From Bacillota bacterium (GTDB taxonomy: Bacteria; Bacillota; Clostridia; Christensenellales; CAG-138): DNA of 64,000 nt. Position numbers and translations under genes: made by a program. The notes below the pieces were generated by a model that worked only from the letters and a program-made list of their open reading frames with translations, ran no database searches and was not told the origin of the DNA. The stretch covers positions 3,318 to 67,317 of the forward strand of contig JAEESS010000007.1 in NCBI GenBank assembly GCA_016286445.1, in the 5' to 3' direction. Below, one piece after another: positions 13,128 to 38,769 of the stretch (within the stretch, counting starts at the first letter, position 1; each line of letters begins with the position of its first letter).

Positions 13128-13156
13128 TTGACAACGGAGGCGGCGCTTTCTATAAT
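13128..13156 (+). promoter_or_regulatory. Consensus sigma-A promoter (TTGACA-17-TATAAT) for the NusG paralog
   Basis: TTGACA at 13128-13133, a 17-nt spacer, then TATAAT at 13151-13156. Confidence 0.6.
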
Positions 13157-13184
13157 GGGTACACCGAGTACGCAAAGGAGGAGG

Positions 13185-13730
13185 ATGCCGATGGAAAGCT
13201 ATTGCCTGTTCTGCAAAAGCGGGCAGGAAGGTCTTGTGATCGATCTTTTGAAGCACGGCGGATATGCGGCGTTTTCTCCGTTTGCGGTGCGAAACAGACC
13301 GGACGCCGGCGGTCTTCGGAGAACGAAAGCGCGTTTGCTGCCGGGCTATGTGTTCTTTGAAGCGGAAAACGAGCCGGAATGGGACACGATCCGGCGATAC
13401 TCCGGCGTGCTGAAGATTCTGCGCTATGAGGACGGAAGCCGCGCGTTGCACGGAGATGATCTTGCGTTCGTCAAATGGCTGAAGCGCTACGAGGGCGTGA
13501 TCGATGTGTCGCAGGTCGTCAAGGTCGGCACGAAGATCGCGTTTGCCGGAGGACCGCTCGTCGGTATGGAAGCGAAGGTGCTGAAGGTCAACAAAAGCCG
13601 AAAGGCGGTTCAGATCGCGCTCGGCGACGGCGACGCGATATTCCGGAATATATGGTGCTCGATCGAGTACATCGGGGAAAACGCGGACATCGATATGCTG
13701 CATCAGTCGTCAGCGCAGCCGGAACAGTAA
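13185..13730 (+). CDS. Specialised NusG paralog (LoaP/UpxY-like transcription antiterminator)
   Basis: NGN-like LLPGYVFFEAENEPEWDTIRRYSGVLKIL and KOW-like VGTKIAFAGGPLVGMEAKVLKVNKSRKAVQIAL. RBS AAGGAGGAGG at 13175-13184 (the start may be the second ATG at 13191). Not in a secE-nusG-rplK context; sits at the head of a polysaccharide locus. Confidence 0.75.
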   Translation: MPMESYCLFCKSGQEGLVIDLLKHGGYAAFSPFAVRNRPDAGGLRRTKARLLPGYVFFEAENEPEWDTIRRYSGVLKILRYEDGSRALHGDDLAFVKWLKRYEGVIDVSQVVKVGTKIAFAGGPLVGMEAKVLKVNKSRKAVQIALGDGDAIFRNIWCSIEYIGENADIDMLHQSSAQPEQ

Positions 13731-13746
13731 TGTCATGAAAAAGGAT

Positions 13747-13776
13747 CCGACGGATTGAATGCCGTCGGTTTTTTAT
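13747..13776 (+). terminator. Intrinsic terminator after the NusG paralog
   Basis: CCGACGG (13747-13753) / CCGTCGG (13762-13768) stem followed by TTTTTTATT. Confidence 0.75.
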
Positions 13777-13906
13777 TCTAAAAGAATAAAATGTCGAATT
13801 ATGGAAAATCGATTGACGAAATAACGCAAAAGATGTATGCTGACAGCAGCAGAAACGTCCGGGGAAATCCATATGCAAGCCGCGATTCGGATCGGAAAGG
13901 AACATA

Positions 13907-13935
13907 TTGACGGATGTACAGCATTTGTGTATAAT
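13907..13935 (+). promoter_or_regulatory. Sigma-A-type promoter of the polysaccharide operon (TTGACG-17-TATAAT)
   Basis: TTGACG at 13907-13912, a 17-nt spacer, then TATAAT at 13930-13935, in an AT-rich gap. Confidence 0.6.
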
Positions 13936-13954
13936 AGTATCATCTCATATTATG

Positions 13955-13985
13955 CGATATTGTGCGCGTAGTACGCAAAATATCG
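13955..13985 (+). promoter_or_regulatory. Leader RNA hairpin (candidate antiterminator recruitment element)
   Basis: CGATATT(G)TGCG - CGTAGTA - CGCA(A)AATATCG: 11 bp with one mismatch. It starts about 20 nt after the -10 box and has no U-tract. Function is inferred only. Confidence 0.3.
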
Positions 13986-14093
13986 ATAATATAGACAGAA
14001 AAATATGATAGCTTGCGAAAAATGCACGACAGAAGACGCATTGGGGAACGGACAGCGACGGATTTTGTGCTTTTTCCGGAAAGGATTTTTGCA

Positions 14094-14876
14094 TTGGAAC
14101 AGGTGAGACGGGACAAAAATGAAGTTGAGATCAATCTCGGAGATGTTTTCCAGATTCTGATCTCGAAATGGATCTATATTTTGCTTGCAGGCGTCCTTAC
14201 CGCGCTTGCGGTCGGTTTGTTTACGCATTTCCTTGTGCATAAGAAATACACGGCGTCGGTTTCCATGTATATCTACACGACGAACGACCAGAACCAGACC
14301 GGTACGATCAGCTACAGCGAACTGAGCGCGGCGGACAACCTGATCAAAACCTATCAAGTCATCGTAAAGAGCAATTCCGTTCTGGATACGGTTGCGGAGC
14401 GATTCAATGCCGAGCATCCGGAGTATGCGGAATGGGATATTCAGTCGAGCAACTTGTCGAGAGCAACGTCCGTCTCCGTTCCGAACGGGACCAAACTGAT
14501 TCAGGTGAGCGTTACGACCCGTGATCCGAAGCTGTCCGCGGACATCGCCAATACGTTTGCGAAGTATGTTCCCGAGCAGATCATCCGCATCACGAAAGCG
14601 GGCGGCGTTGAGATCGTGGACTATGCGACCGTTCCGAACGGTCCGTCCAGTCCGAATCTGACCAGAAACACGGTCCTCGGCTTTGCCGCGGGCTTCATAC
14701 TGGTCGCGGTATACTTCCTGCTGCGCGCATATCTTGATACGACGATCTATACGTCGGAGGAGGTCCAGAAGGTCAGCCGCTGCCCGGTGATCGGAACGGT
14801 ACCGATGATCGTTGCAAGCGGAGAGGAAACGGCACAATGGGAGGTCACGCTCCGGGAGGAAATCGTCAATGAGTAA
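14094..14876 (+). CDS. Wzz/CpsC-type polysaccharide co-polymerase (BY-kinase transmembrane modulator)
   Basis: ...EINLGDVFQILISKWIYILLAGVLTALAVGLF... N-terminal TM, a periplasmic-type Wzz domain and a C-terminal TM (VLGFAAGFILVAVYFLL). Start chosen at in-frame TTG 14094 behind GGAAAGGA (14077-14084). Alternatives are TTG 14013 and ATG 14022. Confidence 0.8.
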   Translation: MEQVRRDKNEVEINLGDVFQILISKWIYILLAGVLTALAVGLFTHFLVHKKYTASVSMYIYTTNDQNQTGTISYSELSAADNLIKTYQVIVKSNSVLDTVAERFNAEHPEYAEWDIQSSNLSRATSVSVPNGTKLIQVSVTTRDPKLSADIANTFAKYVPEQIIRITKAGGVEIVDYATVPNGPSSPNLTRNTVLGFAAGFILVAVYFLLRAYLDTTIYTSEEVQKVSRCPVIGTVPMIVASGEETAQWEVTLREEIVNE

Positions 14877-16422
14877 GATCACGATGAAACGTTCCGCTAA
14901 GAGCGGGAACAGCAAGCAGGAAGAACGCGCACAGATCCGGGAAAACCGGAGAAAGATCCTGACCGAATCCAGCGCCTTCGCCATCCGCGAGGCGTATGTG
15001 CAGCTTCGTACGAATCTGATGTACAGCGTGGCGTCGATGGACGACCGCGGCTGCAAGGTTTTCGGTGTAACGAGTGCGAATCCGTCCGAGGGCAAGAGCT
15101 TAACGGCGTCGAACATTGCGGTATCGTTCGCAATGCTCGGCAAAAAAACGCTGCTGATCGACTGCGACATGCGCAAGCCGAACATTGCGCGGCTTTGGCA
15201 TATCCATACGAACAACGGTCTGAGCGATCTGATCGCCAAGGTGGATGTATGCGATGTTTACGGCGTTGAAGGACTTCCGCTTTCGATCATCGCCTGCGGT
15301 AAAATTCCGCCGAATCCGTCGGAGATGCTGGCGTCCGCCGCGTTCCAGAATGCGATTGAGCGCTTCCGCAGAAAATACAATTACATCATCATCGATACTC
15401 CGCCGATCAACGAGGTCGCGGACGCGCAGATCGTATCGCGCGTGGTCGACGGCATGGTGCTGGTCATCCGTTCCGCAAAGACGAAGCAGAGAGATCTTGC
15501 GGAAGCCGAGAGCACGCTTCAAAGCGCAGGCGCACGGATCTGCGGCGTCGTGATCAACGATCTGAACCTCAAGCAGGGCGGAAAATACGGTTATAAGTAC
15601 GGCTATAAGTACGGTTATAAGTATGGCTATAAGTACGGGTACAAGTACGAGTATCAGTACGGCTACCGTTACGGGGATACGCCGGACTACGGCACGGATA
15701 CAGGCTCGGCGGCAGTCAAAAAACCGGTAAAGAAAGCTGCGGTAAGGGAGATTGATTTCCACGCGCATATTCTGCCCGGGCTCGATCACGGCAGCAAGGA
15801 TCTCGACAATTCGCTCGAACAGATCCGCCTTGCAAAGGCGGGCGGCGTCGATGTGATCTGCGCGACCTCACATTTTTACGGGCAGCAGATCGGCGTCGAA
15901 ACGTTCCTGGAGCAGCGCGCGCGCAGCTGGCTGGAATTGAAATCCAAGCTGGAGGAAGGCAGTCCCCGGATCGTTCTCGGGGCGGAAGTGCTCGCGTTTG
16001 AGGGGATCGATAAGCTGCCGCAGATTGAGAATCTGTGCATTGTCGGAACGAACATCCTGCTTCTTGAGATGCCGTTCGCACACTGGTCCGAGCGCTTGAT
16101 CGATTCGATCGAAACCCTGAGCGAGCGCGGCGATCTTGAGATCGTTCTTGCGCATGTGGATCGTTACGATCGCAAGCAGATCGAACGGCTGCTGGCAATG
16201 GACCATATCAAAGGACAGGTCAATGTGTCTGCGCTGACCAAGCATCTGCAGAGCAGCTATCTGCGCGACTGGATCAAGGAAGGAAAGATCGTCGCAGTGG
16301 GAAGCGATATCCACGGAACAAAGACCGGCTATACGGAGTGGCAATCCGTAAAGCAGCGGTATCCGGAGGAATGGAAAACCGTGATGCGGGAGACCGAAGC
16401 GCTGCTTTCGGATCTTCTCTGA
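14869..16422 (+). CDS. Fusion protein: BY-kinase (CpsD/YwqD-like), extended Tyr cluster, PHP-family phosphotyrosine phosphatase (CpsB/YwqE-like)
   Basis: Walker A GVTSANPSEGKSLTASN, A' LLIDCDMRKP, B IIIDTPP. Tyr cluster GGKYGYKYGYKYGYKYGYKYGYKYEYQYGYRYGDTPDYG. CpsB-like IDFHAHILPGLDHG, ATSHFY, LAHVDRY, GSDIH. One uninterrupted frame. Start MSKITMK at 14869 behind GGGAGGA. Confidence 0.85.
   Translation: MSKITMKRSAKSGNSKQEERAQIRENRRKILTESSAFAIREAYVQLRTNLMYSVASMDDRGCKVFGVTSANPSEGKSLTASNIAVSFAMLGKKTLLIDCDMRKPNIARLWHIHTNNGLSDLIAKVDVCDVYGVEGLPLSIIACGKIPPNPSEMLASAAFQNAIERFRRKYNYIIIDTPPINEVADAQIVSRVVDGMVLVIRSAKTKQRDLAEAESTLQSAGARICGVVINDLNLKQGGKYGYKYGYKYGYKYGYKYGYKYEYQYGYRYGDTPDYGTDTGSAAVKKPVKKAAVREIDFHAHILPGLDHGSKDLDNSLEQIRLAKAGGVDVICATSHFYGQQIGVETFLEQRARSWLELKSKLEEGSPRIVLGAEVLAFEGIDKLPQIENLCIVGTNILLLEMPFAHWSERLIDSIETLSERGDLEIVLAHVDRYDRKQIERLLAMDHIKGQVNVSALTKHLQSSYLRDWIKEGKIVAVGSDIHGTKTGYTEWQSVKQRYPEEWKTVMRETEALLSDLL
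15583..15676 (+). repeat. In-frame 12-nt tandem repeat (TACGGNTATAAG-like, about 5 near-perfect plus 2-3 degenerate units) encoding (YGYK)n
   Basis: Read directly: tacggttataag tacggctataag tacggttataag tatggctataag tacgggtacaag tacgagtatcag tacggctaccgt. Confidence 0.9.
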
Positions 16423-16589
16423 GGGTAAGGCGAAAAAAGGGGAAAAGAGACCGAAACGGGCGGTGCGCGGCCACAGTCGCCCCGAAAACGAGCGGTCGAA
16501 CAAAGCGTGATCCGGAGGATGCGGAGCGAGTGAAAACGCGCCGTATGCCGAAGGCAACGCAAAAATCCGAATAACAGGAGACCCCTGCA

Positions 16590-18131
16590 GTGCAAGAAAC
16601 CAACACAAATCAGACGAACCAACTGCATCAAAAACCGAAATCCCGGAAAAAAAGAACGGTTCTGTGGATCGTTCTGTCGATCGCGGCGCTTGCTTTGATC
16701 GGCGGCGGGATCTACGCGTGGCATGTACTGAAGCGACCGGATGTATTTTTCGATCAGACTGCGCGCATATCCGCCCAATCGACGCCGGAAACGACGCCCG
16801 CTTTCGATATAGAAGCGTATCTGCCGACGGCAGAGCCCGGCACAGCGCCGAGTTTGACGGCAGCGCCGGAGGAGACGTCCGGATCTGCTGAGCAAGCGAA
16901 TGAAAGCATACCCATGACGGGGATCGTCAATATCGCCCTGTTCGGGATCGACGCATATGAGGACGGGACGTCGACAAGCGGCACCATGCCGCATACCGAC
17001 GCCAATATGATCGTCGCGATCAATTTCGAGAAAAAGGAAGTCAGTCTGATTTCCATCGCGCGCGACTGTCTGACGACTGCGCCGGGTCATACCGGGTTTT
17101 ATAAGTTCAACGGCGTTTTCAACGTCGGCGGCGGCATGAAGGACCCGAAGGCGGGGTTTGAACTGAGCTCCCGCGCCGCGGAGGAGTGGCTCGGCGGTGT
17201 TTCCGTTCCGTATTATTACGGCGTGGACTTCCAGGCGGTGATCGATCTGGTCGATATGATCGGCGGGATTGATTTTGATGTGGAGATCAGACTGACAACG
17301 CTTAACGGCAGGACGATCAATCCGGGCAGGCGCCATCTGGACGGCAACGGCGTAATGGCATATATGCGTATGCGCAAAACCGCGGACGGCCTCGATTCAA
17401 GCCGGACCGCACGCCAGCGCAAGATGCTGATCGCAATCTTCAAGAAGCTGAAGCAGGAAAGCAAGCTTTCCATGATCCCGGATCTTCTGAAGACCATGGG
17501 CGACAATGTCTATACGAATACAAGTCTGACGCAAACGATGTCGCTCGTGAATTTTGCGCAGGGACTGGACGAAGACAGCATCCGTTCTTACAGCATTCAG
17601 GGGCGTATGCATTATCAGTACGATTGGCGGTATTGCTTTATCGATCAGCAGGCGCGAATCGATATTCTGAAGGAAGTGTACGGGATCGATGCGGAGCCGA
17701 TGCGGATCGATTCGCTTGTGTATGAAACCTTTCTTTACGACAGCGGATTTCGGGCGATCCAGTATCTGACGATTGCGCAAAAGCTGTTTGCAGCCATACA
17801 TGAACTGGGACCCGCCGACGCCATGAGCGAGGAGCAGAAGACCGCCTATGCCGTCTGCTGGAAGGATTACGAGAACCTGCGCGACCGGTTCCGCGCCGTC
17901 GACCGCTGGACGCAGGAGCATTATGACAGTACCGGATTCACGAAAGAGGAACAACAGAAGCGTACGAATGATTACGAAGAACTGAAAGCGCTTGAGGCAA
18001 AGCTGAAGGAATCGGGCGACGCGCTCAATACGCTGTTCCGGAATCCGATCACATTGAGATGGAACCGAAGCATCATCAATTGGTACAAAGAGGACAGCGA
18101 TATCAACGACGTTTACGTTGATTTCCGATAA
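16590..18131 (+). CDS. LCP (LytR-CpsA-Psr) family glycopolymer phosphotransferase, copy 1
   Basis: N-terminal TM, then NIALFGIDAYEDG...HTDANMIVAINFEKKEVSLISIARD...YYYGVDFQAVIDLVDMIGGIDFDV...RTARQRKMLIAIFKKLK. GTG start with RBS-like CAGGAGA. Confidence 0.85.
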   Translation: MQETNTNQTNQLHQKPKSRKKRTVLWIVLSIAALALIGGGIYAWHVLKRPDVFFDQTARISAQSTPETTPAFDIEAYLPTAEPGTAPSLTAAPEETSGSAEQANESIPMTGIVNIALFGIDAYEDGTSTSGTMPHTDANMIVAINFEKKEVSLISIARDCLTTAPGHTGFYKFNGVFNVGGGMKDPKAGFELSSRAAEEWLGGVSVPYYYGVDFQAVIDLVDMIGGIDFDVEIRLTTLNGRTINPGRRHLDGNGVMAYMRMRKTADGLDSSRTARQRKMLIAIFKKLKQESKLSMIPDLLKTMGDNVYTNTSLTQTMSLVNFAQGLDEDSIRSYSIQGRMHYQYDWRYCFIDQQARIDILKEVYGIDAEPMRIDSLVYETFLYDSGFRAIQYLTIAQKLFAAIHELGPADAMSEEQKTAYAVCWKDYENLRDRFRAVDRWTQEHYDSTGFTKEEQQKRTNDYEELKALEAKLKESGDALNTLFRNPITLRWNRSIINWYKEDSDINDVYVDFR

Positions 18132-20781: not shown

Positions 20782-22092
20782 ATGAACAAGTTTTCTGAAG
20801 ATCCGCGTTTTGCCGGGATCAAACCGTTTGAAAAAAAGGTTTGGCTGAGCTCACCGACCATGCACGGCGACGAACAGCATTGGGTGGACGACGCCATACA
20901 GACGAACTGGGTATCGACCATCGGTGCGAATATCAACGAGGTAGAGAAGCAGATCGCCGAACGGATCGGCGTCAAGTATGCCGTCGCGCTTTCCTGCGGG
21001 ACAGCGGCGCTGCATCTTGCAACAAAGCTTGCCGGTGAAAAACTCTACGGGCAGGCACGTCCGAACGAAGGTACCCTGCAAGGACACAAGGTCTTTTGCT
21101 CCGATATGACGTTCGACGCTTCCATCAATCCGGTCGCCTATGAAGACGGCGAGGCGATCTTTATCGATACCGAACGCGATACATGGAACATGTCCCCGGA
21201 AGCTCTTGAAAAAGCGTTTGAAATCTATCCGGACGTCAGATTGGTCGTCATCGCGCATCTGTACGGAACGCCGGGCAAGATGGAGGAGCTGAAGTCGATC
21301 TGTGAAAAACACGGCGCGCTGATTGTCGAAGACGCAGCGGAATCCCTCGGCGCAAAGTACAAGCTGAACGGCGCGTGGGTGGAAACCGGTACGCTCGGCG
21401 ACTACAACTGCATCAGCTTCAACGGCAACAAGATCATCACCGGCAGCGCGGGCGGCATGTTCCTCACGAACAATGTTGAGGACGCAAACAAGGTTCGCAA
21501 ATGGTCCACGCAAAGCCGCGAAGCAGCGCCGTGGTACCAGCATGAAGAGATCGGCTATAACTACCGCATGAGCAATATCATTGCAGGCGTCGTTCGCGGA
21601 CAGCTTCCGTATATCGAGGAGCATATGGCACAGAAAAAGGCGATCTACGAGCGCTACAAAGCCGGTCTTGCGGATCTGCCGGTCAAAATGAACCCCTACG
21701 ATCCCGACAAGTCCCAGCCGAACTTCTGGCTCTCCTGCATGATCATCGACGAAGACGCCATGGCGCCGCAGGTGCGCGGCGAACGGGACTATCTTTACAA
21801 GTCCGTTTCCGGAAAGAGCAGTCCGCAGGAGATCCTTGACGCCATCTTCGCCTTTAACGCGGAAGGCCGCCCGATTTGGAAGCCGATGCATATGCAGCCG
21901 ATCTACCGCACGCACGCCTTCATCACCGCCGAAGGCAACGGTCGCGGACGCTCCAACGCCTACATCGCGGGCTCCGGCGTCGACGTCGGTGCGGACATCT
22001 TCCGCCGCGGTCTCTGCCTGCCCTCCGACAACAAGCTGACGCCGGAGCAGCAGGACAGGATCATCGACATAATTCATCGCTGCTTCCGGTGA
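20782..22092 (+). CDS. DegT/DnrJ/EryC1-family PLP-dependent sugar aminotransferase
   Basis: ...LSCGTAALHLA...EDAAESLGAKY...ISFNGNKIITGSAGGMF... with the Schiff-base Lys in NGNKIIT. Confidence 0.85.
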   Translation: MNKFSEDPRFAGIKPFEKKVWLSSPTMHGDEQHWVDDAIQTNWVSTIGANINEVEKQIAERIGVKYAVALSCGTAALHLATKLAGEKLYGQARPNEGTLQGHKVFCSDMTFDASINPVAYEDGEAIFIDTERDTWNMSPEALEKAFEIYPDVRLVVIAHLYGTPGKMEELKSICEKHGALIVEDAAESLGAKYKLNGAWVETGTLGDYNCISFNGNKIITGSAGGMFLTNNVEDANKVRKWSTQSREAAPWYQHEEIGYNYRMSNIIAGVVRGQLPYIEEHMAQKKAIYERYKAGLADLPVKMNPYDPDKSQPNFWLSCMIIDEDAMAPQVRGERDYLYKSVSGKSSPQEILDAIFAFNAEGRPIWKPMHMQPIYRTHAFITAEGNGRGRSNAYIAGSGVDVGADIFRRGLCLPSDNKLTPEQQDRIIDIIHRCFR

Positions 22093-23111
22093 TGTTTTTT
22101 GCTGTCGGAGCTTTCGCCATGCTATCCGTTATCGTTCCGGTGTACAATGTTGAGCCATATTTGAAAAGATGTCTTGACAGTATTCTTCATCAATCGTATC
22201 AGGATTTGGAAATATTAATCATTGATGATGGTTCTACAGATGGATCACAGGATATATGTGATGACTTTGAGAAAAAAGACAAGAGAATCAAGGTATTCCA
22301 TACGGAGAACAGAGGACTGTCTTGTGCGCGCAATTTAGGGCTTCAGCATGCAAAAGGCAACTGGATCGGGTTTGTCGATTCAGACGACTGGATCGAGCCG
22401 GATATGTATGAACATTTGATTCGGTCTGCAATTGATAATTGCGCAGATATTTCCTGCTGCGGATACGATAGAGAATATAATGACAGATCAGTATCTCATT
22501 CATTAATCAGTGAAGAAAGATGCTATGATGGTGATGAAATGGTTGCTTCGACCATGAAAGGAAGCACATTTGGCCATTATGCATGGAACAAGATTTATAA
22601 AAGAGAATTGTTCAGTGAGGAATGTAAGTTTCCTCCCGGTATGCTGTTTGAAGATATAGCCACCATATGGAAACTCATCGTGAAATGTCATCGTGTAGTA
22701 TGTGTTCCGGGTACACTCTATCATTATTTGATTCGCAAAGACAGTATCGGCAATACCAAGACAATGAAAAATCTTGCAGATCGTTGGACAGCATTCAAAG
22801 AGCGCTTTGATATAATGGCGTCGAAAAGTGATGAACTACAGATGATTTGCACAAAAGGTTGCCTTGAAACGATCGGTTATACCTGGCGATGGCTGTACGT
22901 CACAAAGAAAAAGGACAGAGTCTGCTATGAAGGACGCCTTCGGGAAATGAGGGAATTTGCAAAAGCAAATCGCAGCATGATGCGTTCTTGTTCGATAGCT
23001 ACACGCATATCTCTTCTTTGTGCTATATACTCAAATCCGATCTCTATATTCGGATGCTATTGGCTGAATCAGGTATTCAGAAGGGCAAGAAGATTGGATC
23101 GGATGACGTGA
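22092..23111 (+). CDS. Glycosyltransferase family 2
   Basis: LSVIVPVYNVEPYLKRCLDSILHQSYQDLEILIIDDGSTDGS...FVDSDDW (DxD). Start at 22092 or 22119. The AT-richer region begins here. Confidence 0.85.
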   Translation: MFFAVGAFAMLSVIVPVYNVEPYLKRCLDSILHQSYQDLEILIIDDGSTDGSQDICDDFEKKDKRIKVFHTENRGLSCARNLGLQHAKGNWIGFVDSDDWIEPDMYEHLIRSAIDNCADISCCGYDREYNDRSVSHSLISEERCYDGDEMVASTMKGSTFGHYAWNKIYKRELFSEECKFPPGMLFEDIATIWKLIVKCHRVVCVPGTLYHYLIRKDSIGNTKTMKNLADRWTAFKERFDIMASKSDELQMICTKGCLETIGYTWRWLYVTKKKDRVCYEGRLREMREFAKANRSMMRSCSIATRISLLCAIYSNPISIFGCYWLNQVFRRARRLDRMT

Positions 23112-25297: not shown

Positions 25298-26070
25298 ATG
25301 ATTTGGTTTCCATTATCATGCCATCATATAATACGGGGGCATGTATTTCGGAATCGATTCAATCCGTTCAAGCGCAAACGTATAAAAACTGGGAACTGAT
25401 CATTGTGGATGATTGTTCAACGGACGATACGGATACGGTTATTCAGAGTTTTTTAGCAGATTCACGGATTCGATATCTGAAAAATGAAAATAACTGTGGG
25501 GCTGCTGTAAGCAGGAATTATGCTTTGCGTGAAGCTAAGGGAAAGTGGATTGCTTTTCTGGATTCAGATGATATCTGGATGCCGCATAAATTAGAGAAAC
25601 AGATCCGATTCATGCAGGAAAACGATTATCATTTTTCCTATACGAATTATGATGAAATGACTGCTGAAGGAGTACGGAATGACGTTTTCGTTACCGGTCC
25701 GAAAAGGATCACGAAAAACGGTTTCTATAATTATTGCTGGCCGGGCTGTCTTACGGTCATGTATGATGCGGAAACGGTTGGCTTGATTCAGATCGCCGAC
25801 ATCAAAAAGAACAATGATTACGCGATGTGGCTGAAGGTGTGTCGAAAGGCGGATTGTTATCTTTTGGATGAGAACTTGGCGATATATCGTCGCGGACGTA
25901 AAGGAAGCGTCAGTACACACAGCATCAGAACAATGATTGCTTGGCATTACCGTCTGTTTCATGAAGCGGAAGGGCAGAATTCTCTGTATGCGGCGATCAA
26001 CACAATTCGAAATTTAGTATTCGGATTATATAAGAAAAGCAGATATGTAAAAAGAGGATACATGCAATGA
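25294..26070 (+). CDS. Glycosyltransferase family 2
   Basis: VSIIMPSYNTGACISESIQSVQAQTYKNWELIIVDDCSTDDT...FLDSDDIW. Confidence 0.85.
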   Translation: MNDLVSIIMPSYNTGACISESIQSVQAQTYKNWELIIVDDCSTDDTDTVIQSFLADSRIRYLKNENNCGAAVSRNYALREAKGKWIAFLDSDDIWMPHKLEKQIRFMQENDYHFSYTNYDEMTAEGVRNDVFVTGPKRITKNGFYNYCWPGCLTVMYDAETVGLIQIADIKKNNDYAMWLKVCRKADCYLLDENLAIYRRGRKGSVSTHSIRTMIAWHYRLFHEAEGQNSLYAAINTIRNLVFGLYKKSRYVKRGYMQ

Positions 26071-37565: not shown

Positions 37566-38720
37566 ATGAAACAGACGGAACAGATCTTATTGCAAGCGAT
37601 ACAAAAATCGTTATGGGGTCGTGACATTGCATTTTCGCCGGATACCGATTGGAAAGCTGTGCTGGATGAGGCGGAGAAGCAAACGATATTATGCATTGCG
37701 ATTTCGGCTGCACCGGCAGAGTATCAAAGCAAATACCAAAGCAGAGCAGGTTTCGGCGTTGCACATTTTATTCGGATCCTGCATTTTCAGTCTGCTTTGT
37801 GCGAGCTGTTTCAGGCAAACGGTATCCCTATGGTAATTCTGAAAGGGACTGCGGCTGCAATCTATTACCCGAACCCGATGCAGCGTACAATGGGCGATAT
37901 CGATTTTCTTGTTCCGGAAGAGTCGTTTGAACGGGCAAAGGAATTGCTTGATTTGAACGGGTATCGGATTGCCGAAGACCCTCTGTATCCGCGGCACATC
38001 GAAGCCTGCAAAGAAGGTGTCTCTTTCGAGATGCATCGTTTTTTCACGAATGACGACGGAGTTGACGTCGACCGTTTCCTTTTTGCGGGCATGCAGAATA
38101 TAAAGACCGGTAGGATCTATCATTCGGAGTTTCCTATGCTGCCTGTCATGGAAAACGGTTTGGTACTGCTTGCACATATTGCGCACCACCTTCGTGCCGG
38201 ATTGGGACTTCGTCAGATGATCGACTGGATGATGTTTGTCGATCAAGAACTGGATGATGAGCTTTGGCTGCAATCATTCAAAACTGCGGCGGAACAGACC
38301 GGTCTCGATAAATTGGCGCGAACGGCGACAAAAATGTGTCAGATGTATCTCGGACTGTCGGATCGGATCAACTGGTGCAAAGATGCGGACAGCAGACTAT
38401 GTGCGGAACTGATGGATAATTTGCTGTCCTCCGGAAACTTTGGGAAGAAAAGGGGGTCCGGGTTACAGGTTGAAAGTGCGGTCTCACACCTTAAGAGAAA
38501 GGGCTTCCGATATCTGCAGCAAGCCGGAGAGTATAACTGGAAGGCATATCATAAGCATAAATGGCTGAAGCCGTTTGCGTGGATCTATCAGATCGGCAGA
38601 TATGCAAGGCAGGGATTGCAGACGAAACGAGAAGGAAAACAAATCATAGAGGACATCGGACGGGGAAAGAAACGAAGCGATCTATATCAGAAACTGATAC
38701 CGGGACAATCAAAGGAATAA
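37566..38720 (+). CDS. Uncharacterised nucleotidyltransferase-family protein (NTP_transf_5-like)
   Basis: ...ILKGTAAAIYYPNPMQRTMGDIDFLVPEESFERAKELLDLNGY... carries the GDxD nucleotidyltransferase signature of this family. Confidence 0.6.
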   Translation: MKQTEQILLQAIQKSLWGRDIAFSPDTDWKAVLDEAEKQTILCIAISAAPAEYQSKYQSRAGFGVAHFIRILHFQSALCELFQANGIPMVILKGTAAAIYYPNPMQRTMGDIDFLVPEESFERAKELLDLNGYRIAEDPLYPRHIEACKEGVSFEMHRFFTNDDGVDVDRFLFAGMQNIKTGRIYHSEFPMLPVMENGLVLLAHIAHHLRAGLGLRQMIDWMMFVDQELDDELWLQSFKTAAEQTGLDKLARTATKMCQMYLGLSDRINWCKDADSRLCAELMDNLLSSGNFGKKRGSGLQVESAVSHLKRKGFRYLQQAGEYNWKAYHKHKWLKPFAWIYQIGRYARQGLQTKREGKQIIEDIGRGKKRSDLYQKLIPGQSKE

Positions 38721-38724
38721 AACA

Positions 38725-38760
38725 AAAGCGCCGGACAGGGTGACCTAATCCGGCGCTTTT
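38725..38760. terminator. Bidirectional intrinsic terminator between convergent operons
   Basis: AAAAGCGCCGGA (38725-38736) / TCCGGCGCTTTT (38749-38760), a perfect 12-bp stem with A/T runs on both sides. Confidence 0.8.
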
Positions 38761-38769
38761 GTTTTCGAT

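Follow-up and report, generated by a model that had tools for sequence, protein, structure and literature searches.

The 64,000-nucleotide stretch of Bacillota DNA analysed here (GenBank assembly GCA_016286445.1, contig JAEESS010000007.1; hereafter the window) contains a gene for a NusG paralog upstream of a long polysaccharide operon. The source assembly is a metagenome-assembled genome (MAG) of a rumen Clostridia bacterium, of 2.65 Mb with 82% completeness. The paralog gene stands between its own promoter (P1) and an intrinsic terminator. A second promoter (P2) follows, with a leader of 152 nt (about 13942-14093) and a capsule or exopolysaccharide (EPS) operon downstream (Table 1). Most of this layout had been proposed in an initial annotation made from the DNA letters alone and was recovered here, including the perfect promoter before the paralog, the near-consensus second promoter, the leader of roughly 150 nt and the series of more than 20 open reading frames (ORFs) on the same strand. 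The terminator assigned to the paralog was likewise found (stem at 13747-13768 with T6, -14.8 kcal/mol, z-score -3.3), and a hairpin with a T-run is kept in most related loci. The protein carries both the NGN and the KOW domain as annotated, yet is one residue shorter than the 180 amino acids first given. It was also correctly described as standing alone, outside the secE-nusG-rplK context. The housekeeping nusG gene is located on another contig.

Table 1. Features of the NusG paralog locus and the adjacent capsule operon. Positions are those of the window.
Feature	Position	Strand	Evidence
P1, sigma-A-type promoter of the paralog gene, TTGACA-17-TATAAT	13128-13156	+	12/12 consensus matches
NusG paralog gene, ATG to stop	13191-13730	+	179 amino acids, NGN and predicted beta-barrel KOW
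Intrinsic terminator closing the paralog unit	13747-13774	+	7-bp GC stem (13747-13768) and T6
Intergenic box AATGTCGAAT	13790-13799	+	Conserved block in 16-locus alignment
Promoter-like site, TTGACG-17-TATGCT	13813-13841	+	9/12 in promoter scan; conserved block in 16-locus alignment
P2, polysaccharide operon promoter, TTGACG-17-TATAAT	13907-13935	+	11/12 consensus matches
TATG-repeat block, promoter-proximal	13941-13976	+	TATGCG at 13951, TGTGCG at 13961, degenerate TACGC at 13972
21-bp imperfect hairpin at the predicted transcript 5' end	13943-13995	+	-17.2 kcal/mol, z -2.66
Capsule/EPS operon, 22 same-strand ORFs	14094-38720	+	ORF list and Pfam
R1, structured RNA of ~120 nt in the gap between genes 2 and 3	16441-16563	+	Covariance model match, 70.6 bits, E 4.7e-16
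Internal terminator-like hairpin with U6 at the DegT stop codon	22075-22100	+	8-bp stem and TTTTTT; -10.7 kcal/mol, z -2.4
Operon-end terminator, bidirectional, very strong	38719-38765	+	~17-bp stem, -31 kcal/mol, z -7.8

The capsule operon spans 24.6 kb and has a gene set typical of a Gram-positive capsule or EPS locus. Domains recognized by Pfam include Wzz/CpsC, a bacterial tyrosine kinase (BY-kinase) fused to a CpsB phosphatase, LCP, a CapD-type dehydratase, VanZ, a DegT aminotransferase, glycosyltransferases of the GT2 and GT4 families, a Bac_transf sugar transferase, a hexapeptide acyltransferase, a UDP-sugar dehydrogenase, Wzy, a TupA-type ATP-grasp protein, a pyruvyl transferase and a UDP-GlcNAc 2-epimerase, in addition to several ORFs without a family. 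One of these is a 511-aa ORF, for which a flippase identity was not confirmed. The first gene starts with a TTG codon at 14094 preceded by GGAAAGGA, and both the start and the ribosome binding site (RBS) are kept in relatives. Gene 2 (14812-16422) encodes the P-loop BY-kinase and the CpsB/CapC phosphatase domains in one ORF. The terminator at the operon end is common to both convergent units. Rfam matches to MIR8008, ohsC and sraL on this terminator were rejected as spurious products of its hairpin.

The paralog is one of exactly two NGN proteins in the genome, the other being a 194-aa NusG encoded in an rpmG-secE-nusG-rplK-rplA cluster (contig C5). Pfam identified the NusG/NGN domain with an E-value of 3.5e-8 and the KOW domain through a weak match. 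Among NCBIfam models, LoaP (NF033641) is the best match, followed by RfaH (TIGR01955; 40.9 bits against a cut-off of 144.5), UpxY (NF033644; 39.7 bits, cut-off 100) and housekeeping NusG (TIGR00922; 26.1 bits, cut-off 135.7), so that the protein reaches the threshold of none of the latter three. The LoaP model is matched by 20 of 20 aligned relatives and gives the best E-value of any family (1.7e-24). The ranking needs to be read with care, because the LoaP model also gives 95-112 bits to ordinary NusGs in a sample of 401 Bacillota genomes, in which true LoaP proteins (173-196 bits) occur in just 7 genomes.

A maximum-likelihood tree was built from 94 proteins, comprising the window paralog, 12 relatives, 60 representatives of clusters at 50% identity, 7 canonical LoaPs, 13 NusGs and one more NGN paralog (L132) that the search with the LoaP model had returned. 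NusG formed a clade with a support of 100. The window paralog and all 60 representatives were placed in one long-branched clade (SH-aLRT support 99, branch length 1.37). The clade is large, with 541 clusters at 50% identity retrieved at E <= 1e-3 and 194 at E <= 1e-10. Its members share a signature of C5xxC8 (YCLFC), Y79xD81, F93xxW96, G102 and W155; LoaP and NusG carry V and T at the C5/C8 columns and other residues at the remaining signature columns. The CxxC pair lies in the first beta-strand and was seen in 52-55 of 61 distant clade representatives, and an invariant W155-C156 is added in the subfamily of the window paralog. A role of the CxxC pair as a metal site or redox switch is conceivable.

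Structure prediction points in the same direction as the profile searches. The AlphaFold2 model of the paralog (pLDDT 84.9, pTM 0.75) shows the KOW domain as a beta-barrel. The best Foldseek matches in the PDB were three chains of the LoaP-RNA complex 8f5g, with TM-scores of 0.70-0.75 over 160-173 columns covering both domains. NusG and RfaH structures reached TM-scores of only ~0.4, and this through the NGN domain alone. The model thus appears to reproduce the compact two-domain arrangement of the LoaP-RNA complex, and 8f5g is also the best PDB match by sequence (E 8.5e-7). By profile and predicted fold, LoaP is the nearest characterised family. The paralog is a member of a large uncharacterised clade, related to LoaP but distinct from it.

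The arrangement seen in the window recurs widely. Protein-guided scans recovered 33 loci from species-representative genomes and 79 from metagenomes, nearly all of them in MAGs of rumen and gut Clostridia labelled Christensenellales, Oscillospiraceae or Acutalibacteraceae. In 61 loci with 54 unique leaders, the paralog is followed within 900 nt by a TTGAC-17-TAnAnT promoter; a terminator usually lies between the two and a capsule (cps) gene comes after the promoter. P1, the paralog terminator and P2 are all kept in related loci, and the order of paralog, terminator, strong promoter, leader and cps operon was found in dozens of loci at 52-86% protein identity. Adjacency to a long operon is shared with LoaP, whose genes lie beside polysaccharide or polyketide operons. 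Its presence is patchy, with 11 of 251 genomes of the same order carrying it and one genome of the same genus lacking it, which is a spread typical of what would be an accessory capsule island. Because distant members of the clade (P0122, P0125, P0136, P0168) are not located beside cps genes, the capsule link is confined to the subfamily of at least ~52% identity and a few others.

Some homologs depart from this arrangement. At L011, L049, L052, L053-L056 and L070, close homologs (72-78% identity) lack a promoter of their own and follow another gene. No cps operon comes next, and neither the TATG-repeat block nor the structured RNA R1, both described below, was found in the flanks examined. 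These homologs may act in trans. In a further genome (G651), the paralog and a cps promoter bearing the TATG block are found on different contigs, with no NGN gene within 1.5 kb of the promoter, a split that makes action in trans plausible there as well.

Two conserved cis elements accompany the paralog. The first became apparent when leaders were anchored on the -10 element, and consists of TATG(C/T)G repeats, two or three in number, at intervals of 10-12 nt. Group A (27 unique leaders, at least 69% identity) shares the block nnTAnnrTCTnATAkTATGCGrTAwTATGTGC. Group B (55-60% identity) has AGTATGCGTATsAGTATGCCC preceded by the palindrome GGATTATAATCC, and group C (52-55% identity) has TTCTATGGGTTTGTATGTCC. 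The first TATG is located 15 nt past the -10 element in nearly all close relatives, and 40 of 49 successive pairs of copies have a spacing of 10-12 nt. TATG is enriched ~18-fold at +15 to +39 after the -10 element (0.068 per nt versus 0.0037 per nt further downstream). Scanning the genome with a position weight matrix of the block gave only one site, at 40.7 bits, with the next best at 19.2. A combined pattern of promoter and motif gave 32 matches in the 251 same-order genomes versus 16 in a reversed control, and the matches other than the window's own locus were due to chance or to FtsW/RodA coding sequence. The latter false-positive class was seen in five genomes (L153-L156, L170), where the pattern falls inside FtsW/RodA-type genes (…LIILEPNMSITMC…). 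The leader gave no match in Rfam.

In the window, the TATG block constitutes the 5' arm of a hairpin that begins ~1-2 nt past the predicted transcription start. The initial annotation had described an 11-bp hairpin at 13955-13985 lacking a U-tract. It pairs as described, with one G.A mismatch, and no U-tract follows; it is in fact the inner part of a 21-bp hairpin with two bulges and one G.A mismatch. Only 3 of 200 shuffled sequences were as stable, and the centroid fold of the complete leader retains no other structure. Among relatives, the first ~75 nt of group A leaders are more stable than shuffles (mean z -1.9; other groups, mean z -0.65), and in all 27 group A leaders, pairing of the 5' block with the 50 nt that follow it exceeds the shuffled level (mean z +1.76). 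RNAalifold yielded no consensus structure for the whole leader or its first 67 nt in alignments of 13 and 26 close relatives. The hairpin is thus present in this genome and close relatives keep a tendency to pair, and the unit under selection is the 5' sequence block.

A hairpin with a UNCG loop and a stem of at least 4 bp, the type of element found at LoaP loci, occurs in just 3 of 54 leaders, at differing positions, and is missing from the gap that holds R1 in the window. The canonical LoaP loci L120 and L121 carry GU-UUCG-GC. Within the window, a 5-bp hairpin with a UCCG loop (CUUUU-UCCG-GAAAG, 14070-14083) covers the RBS of the first operon gene in this genome alone and not in relatives. 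An GCGAAAAA box in the middle of the leader (14015-14022) recurs in L005, L006 and L029, with a similar box in L009, in otherwise unalignable sequence.

The second cis element is the structured RNA that we call R1. It was recognized in the longer leaders of groups B and C, for which RNAalifold proposed 25 pairs and compensatory changes in 6 of these. The covariance model derived from this element matches the window over its full length, and this is the only copy in the genome. The match lies ~2.5 kb downstream, inside the operon, in a 167-nt gap between the end of the BY-kinase/CpsB gene at 16422 and the GTG start of the LCP gene at 16590. It starts 19 nt past the stop codon of gene 2. Across 41 model-aligned sequences, in an alignment fitted to the model itself, 94.1% of cells are paired compared to 86.2% in shuffles, with 0 of 500 shuffles reaching the observed value. 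Both-side changes occur in 15 of 25 pairs, and compensatory cells number 89 against 28 expected. In controls where the 3' partner was slid by 1-3 columns, 20-46% of cells were paired. R1 matched no Rfam family, including epsC/EAR (eps-associated RNA, RF01735), at E <= 1 in a 28-kb search or at E <= 10 in a 200-nt region, nor did its counterparts in relatives. A weak second match of the model at 25759-25846 (14.6 bits, E 0.047), also inside the operon, is probably due to chance.

R1 was detected in 43 of 98 loci centred on the paralog, always on the strand of the paralog, and in three arrangements. In close relatives with enough flanking sequence, it is located in the operon ~2.7 kb past the paralog stop, as in the window. 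In groups B and C it lies in the leader directly after the TATG block. At L084, L090, L100, L025 and L030, it ends 5-25 nt before the start codon of the paralog, with L100 showing the order of BY-kinase, R1 and paralog. Searches starting from R1 found it in 2 of 251 same-order genomes (the window's own and G511), both among the 11 that carry the paralog (hypergeometric p ~0.002), and in 1 of 399 same-class genomes, which was the window's own; these background frequencies are floors, owing to strict filters and few candidates scored per genome in searches over more than 40 genomes. In G511, R1 is located in a leader after a TATAAT promoter and before a sugar-transferase gene (L185), on a contig different from that of the paralog. 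The short leader contains GGCGGTAT, which equals the first seven bases of the ops element of RfaH.

Specialised NusG paralogs are known to be loaded in different ways. Both domains of LoaP bind a small RNA hairpin in the leader, and the protein opposes NusA at intrinsic terminators (PMC12691694). For UpxY and RfaH, loading takes place on paused complexes and is directed by DNA signals (PMC11685472). We consider it fairly likely that the paralog of the window acts as an operon-specific processive antitermination and elongation factor for the adjacent capsule operon, with binding, loading and antitermination being the steps that we infer. At the sequence level, this is supported by the identity and fold of the protein, the conservation of both cis elements, the covariation of R1, and the tight co-occurrence of both elements with the paralog.

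The paralog would be produced as a monocistronic unit from P1, which looks constitutive. RNA polymerase starting at P2 would transcribe the TATG(C/T)G block, which in this genome could fold into the 21-bp hairpin at the 5' end. About 2.5 kb further on, the polymerase would transcribe R1, at the point where the regulatory genes (Wzz, BY-kinase/phosphatase) give way to the biosynthetic ones. The paralog might recognise a nascent nucleic-acid signal, most likely R1 by analogy with the RNA-binding LoaP. The TATG block could be an alternative signal, or serve as an additional pause or loading site, a first contact site or a 5' stabiliser. Having replaced NusG on the elongation complex, the paralog would render the polymerase resistant to pauses and intrinsic terminators until the terminator at 38.7 kb. 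The hairpin at 22075-22100 is a candidate for a site that a processive antiterminator would need to read through. Regarding the operon end, terminators with long stems are reported to be resistant to processive antitermination (PMC10325885).

Since R1 occupies the position of EAR and is linked to a LoaP-like protein with a predicted conformation resembling the RNA-bound state, a bipartite system is favoured. R1 is the best candidate for the RNA recruitment element of the paralog. A more specific proposal, which we make tentatively and hold to be possible rather than probable, is that R1 represents a new class of antitermination RNA acting as the loading platform for a new, large clade of NusG paralogs, with the TATG repeats as a programmed pause that would ready the elongation complex.

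Several observations weigh against this interpretation. The paralog scores 70.5 bits on the LoaP model, far below the cut-off of 125, and is not a LoaP by this measure. The initial label of LoaP-like is thus apt for profile and fold, for which LoaP is closest, and fails in that the protein belongs to a separate clade and has no conserved UNCG hairpin. The paralog groups neither with housekeeping NusG nor with canonical LoaPs, which fall outside its clade in three small unresolved groups of a tree that contains no RfaH, UpxY, ActX or TaA sequences. About 11 close paralogs are orphans, having neither the TATG block nor R1 in the flanks examined. Among the 4 closest genomes in the order sample that carry the paralog, 2 gave no R1 match, and R1 was not found near canonical LoaPs or near human-gut paralogs of 44-52% identity. 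Terminator-like sites are in mild excess within the operon (28 versus 19.2 +/- 4.2 expected), and just one of the internal terminators is convincing. The leader hairpin, which had been proposed as a candidate recruitment site, shows no covariation on the sequence alignment (60.5% of cells paired versus 59.6% in shuffles, no excess of compensatory changes). For lack of covariation in its register, we do not call it a conserved structure. What is conserved is the TATG(C/T)G block in its 5' arm, at a fixed distance from the -10 element, and R1 is the better candidate for recruitment.

R1 could also be an independent regulator of the capsule genes in cis, either a riboswitch for a metabolite or other signal or a stand-alone EAR-type antitermination RNA that merely shares this type of locus. 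Recruitment of the paralog would in that case fall to the TATG block or its hairpin alone. The multi-helix architecture of R1 and its many invariant unpaired nucleotides would fit such a role, as would its 3' hairpin with a Shine-Dalgarno-like GAAGG/GGAGG, which at some loci is followed by a start codon 5-25 nt further on. The TATG block is moreover present at every promoter following a paralog, and EAR is reported to be active without a known protein partner (PMC8191782). However, R1 is essentially restricted to genomes and loci bearing the paralog, directly abuts the paralog gene in several of them, and has no ligand-related genes consistently downstream. Independence of R1, which would count against the bipartite system, is in our view rather unlikely.

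Alternatively, the TATG block might act as DNA, either as an ops-like non-template signal with a pause or as -10-like TAnTAT elements causing sigma-dependent promoter-proximal pausing. The fixed distance to the -10 element and the period of 10-12 nt are consistent with this, and a spacing of 10 nt produces G(-10)...T(-1)G(+1), the elemental pause consensus. Many group A blocks read tGCGGTAwTATG. In the pause register, this sequence shares with ops (GGCGGTAGnnTG) 8 of its 10 specified positions, a lead only. The leader in G511 with GGCGGTAT fits as well. The N-terminus of the paralog, FCKSGQE, resembles YCKRGQ of RfaH, which we take as a lead only. Yet the ops-like match is limited to part of the close group, the window having GCGATA and groups B and C not matching, and the estimated chance of such a match within the block is ~0.01-0.06. 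UpxY sites are DNA elements of ~40 bp (PMC11685472), which would suit a DNA signal, but the predicted fold and domain arrangement of the paralog resemble RNA-bound LoaP and not RfaH. Recognition of the block as DNA is, in our view, rather unlikely.

Neither element of the leader might recruit the paralog if the 5' hairpin were an mRNA-stabilising stem-loop, or the TATG repeats an operator of a regulator such as a winged-helix response regulator. The hairpin begins almost at the predicted start of the transcript and shows no covariation, and repeats in direct orientation, at a distance of one helical turn, are typical for binding sites of response regulators. Against this, the sequence of the 5' arm is conserved far beyond the needs of a generic stabilising stem, the motif occurs only once in the genome and accompanies the paralog family, and no regulator gene is conserved beside it. 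These points make a stabiliser or operator quite unlikely. Finally, a second housekeeping-type NusG or a decaying duplicate without an operon-specific role would share the NGN and KOW architecture, but is extremely improbable given the 26 bits on the NusG model (cut-off 135.7), the separate clade with 99-100% support, 34 invariant columns among homologs at 55-86% identity, the patchy spread among genomes of the order and genus, as given above, and the consistent cps linkage.

The remaining features of the locus concern the surroundings of the paralog gene. Upstream neighbours are encoded on the opposite strand (an esterase, an acyl-ACP thioesterase and an amylase) and have no relation to capsules. 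In close relatives, P1 takes the form CCTTGACAA-N17-19-CTCTATAATGGGrACAC with an CAAGAGAAAAA box upstream, and AAGGAGGAGG is found 5' of the paralog ORF in the window. The 1.4-kb region contains 4 promoter-like sites compared to 1.5 +/- 1.2 in shuffles. The intergenic promoter-like site listed in Table 1 (TTGACGAAATAACGCAAAAGATGTATGCT, 13813-13841) has 9 of 12 consensus matches, with the spacer included in the strong conservation among close relatives, and may be a tandem promoter or a protein-binding site. Close relatives keep a GTCGAAT box (at 13790-13799 in the window) after the paralog terminator and ahead of the promoter that follows. This box, with AGGAwww 11-12 nt upstream, is also found 5' of canonical loaP genes (L115, L116, L118, L120). 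The pair resembles a sigma-H-type promoter (RnAGGAwWW-N11-12-RnnGAAT), the -35-like part being poor in the window.

Operon-specific NusG paralogs control capsules, toxins and antibiotic clusters, and their mechanism is understood only for RfaH, UpxY and LoaP, each with a signal of its own. The locus described here represents a large unstudied clade, the capsule-linked branch of which has two conserved cis elements absent from Rfam. The general idea is not new, as LoaP-type paralogs beside polysaccharide clusters were already known (PMC12691694). The CxxC clade, the TATG-repeat block, and R1 with its linkage to the paralog appear to be undescribed in Rfam 15 and the searchable literature. The elements could provide parts for expressing long polysaccharide clusters, as well as a route to annotate capsule regulation in rumen and gut Clostridia.

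Among known systems, UpxY/UpxZ of Bacteroides and RfaH/ops of Proteobacteria also involve NusG paralogs specific to capsule or lipopolysaccharide operons, for which conserved, pause-coupled elements of the leader serve as recruitment sites. At some related loci, the gene for the paralog is located in the operon right after a leader-type element, as is upxY. In contrast to UpxY, the window has no small UpxZ-like partner gene, and the paralog forms a transcription unit of its own ahead of the promoter of the operon. The resemblance to RfaH is the ops-like part of the TATG block, in pause register, in some relatives; the difference is that the KOW domain of the window paralog is predicted as a beta-barrel and not as an alpha-hairpin. 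The conAn system of Gram-positive conjugative elements combines a protein (ConAn1) with an RNA (conAn2) in a two-part antitermination logic at the start of a long operon (PMC8191782). The likeness is in logic only; ConAn1 is not reported as a NusG-like antiterminator in that source, and both the RNA and the operon type are unrelated.

LoaP of Bacillus velezensis and Thermoanaerobacter pseudethanolicus (8f5g) is, like the window paralog, a NusG paralog of Bacillota with NGN and KOW domains, encoded beside long operons for polysaccharides or secondary metabolites. Canonical loaP genes in our sample also precede capsule genes of the Wzz/CpsB type. The window paralog differs by its CxxC, YxD, FxxW and W155 residues and its placement in a separate clade on a long branch. 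Its cis elements are TATG repeats and a 120-nt R1 rather than a conserved UNCG hairpin.

EAR is an RNA that promotes processive antitermination and is located within or upstream of eps and cps operons in Bacilli, for which a protein cofactor is not excluded (PMC8191782, PMC2864571). Like R1, the EAR/epsC RNA of Bacillales (RF01735) has a length of ~120 nt and is found in the operon after the kinase gene, or upstream (PMC8191782, PMC2864571). R1 occupies matching positions, between BY-kinase/CpsB and LCP in the window, and in the leader or in the gap between BY-kinase and paralog elsewhere. R1 differs in having no match to RF01735, in occurring in rumen Clostridia instead of Bacillales, and in its tight linkage to a NusG paralog; for EAR, no protein partner is known. 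A covarying RNA and a NusG paralog at the position that EAR holds in the Bacillus eps operon offer a testable idea linking RNA-based and NusG-based antitermination. If R1 is indeed the loading platform of the paralog, EAR-type RNAs in general may use cofactors of the NusG family, which would address the missing partner of EAR.

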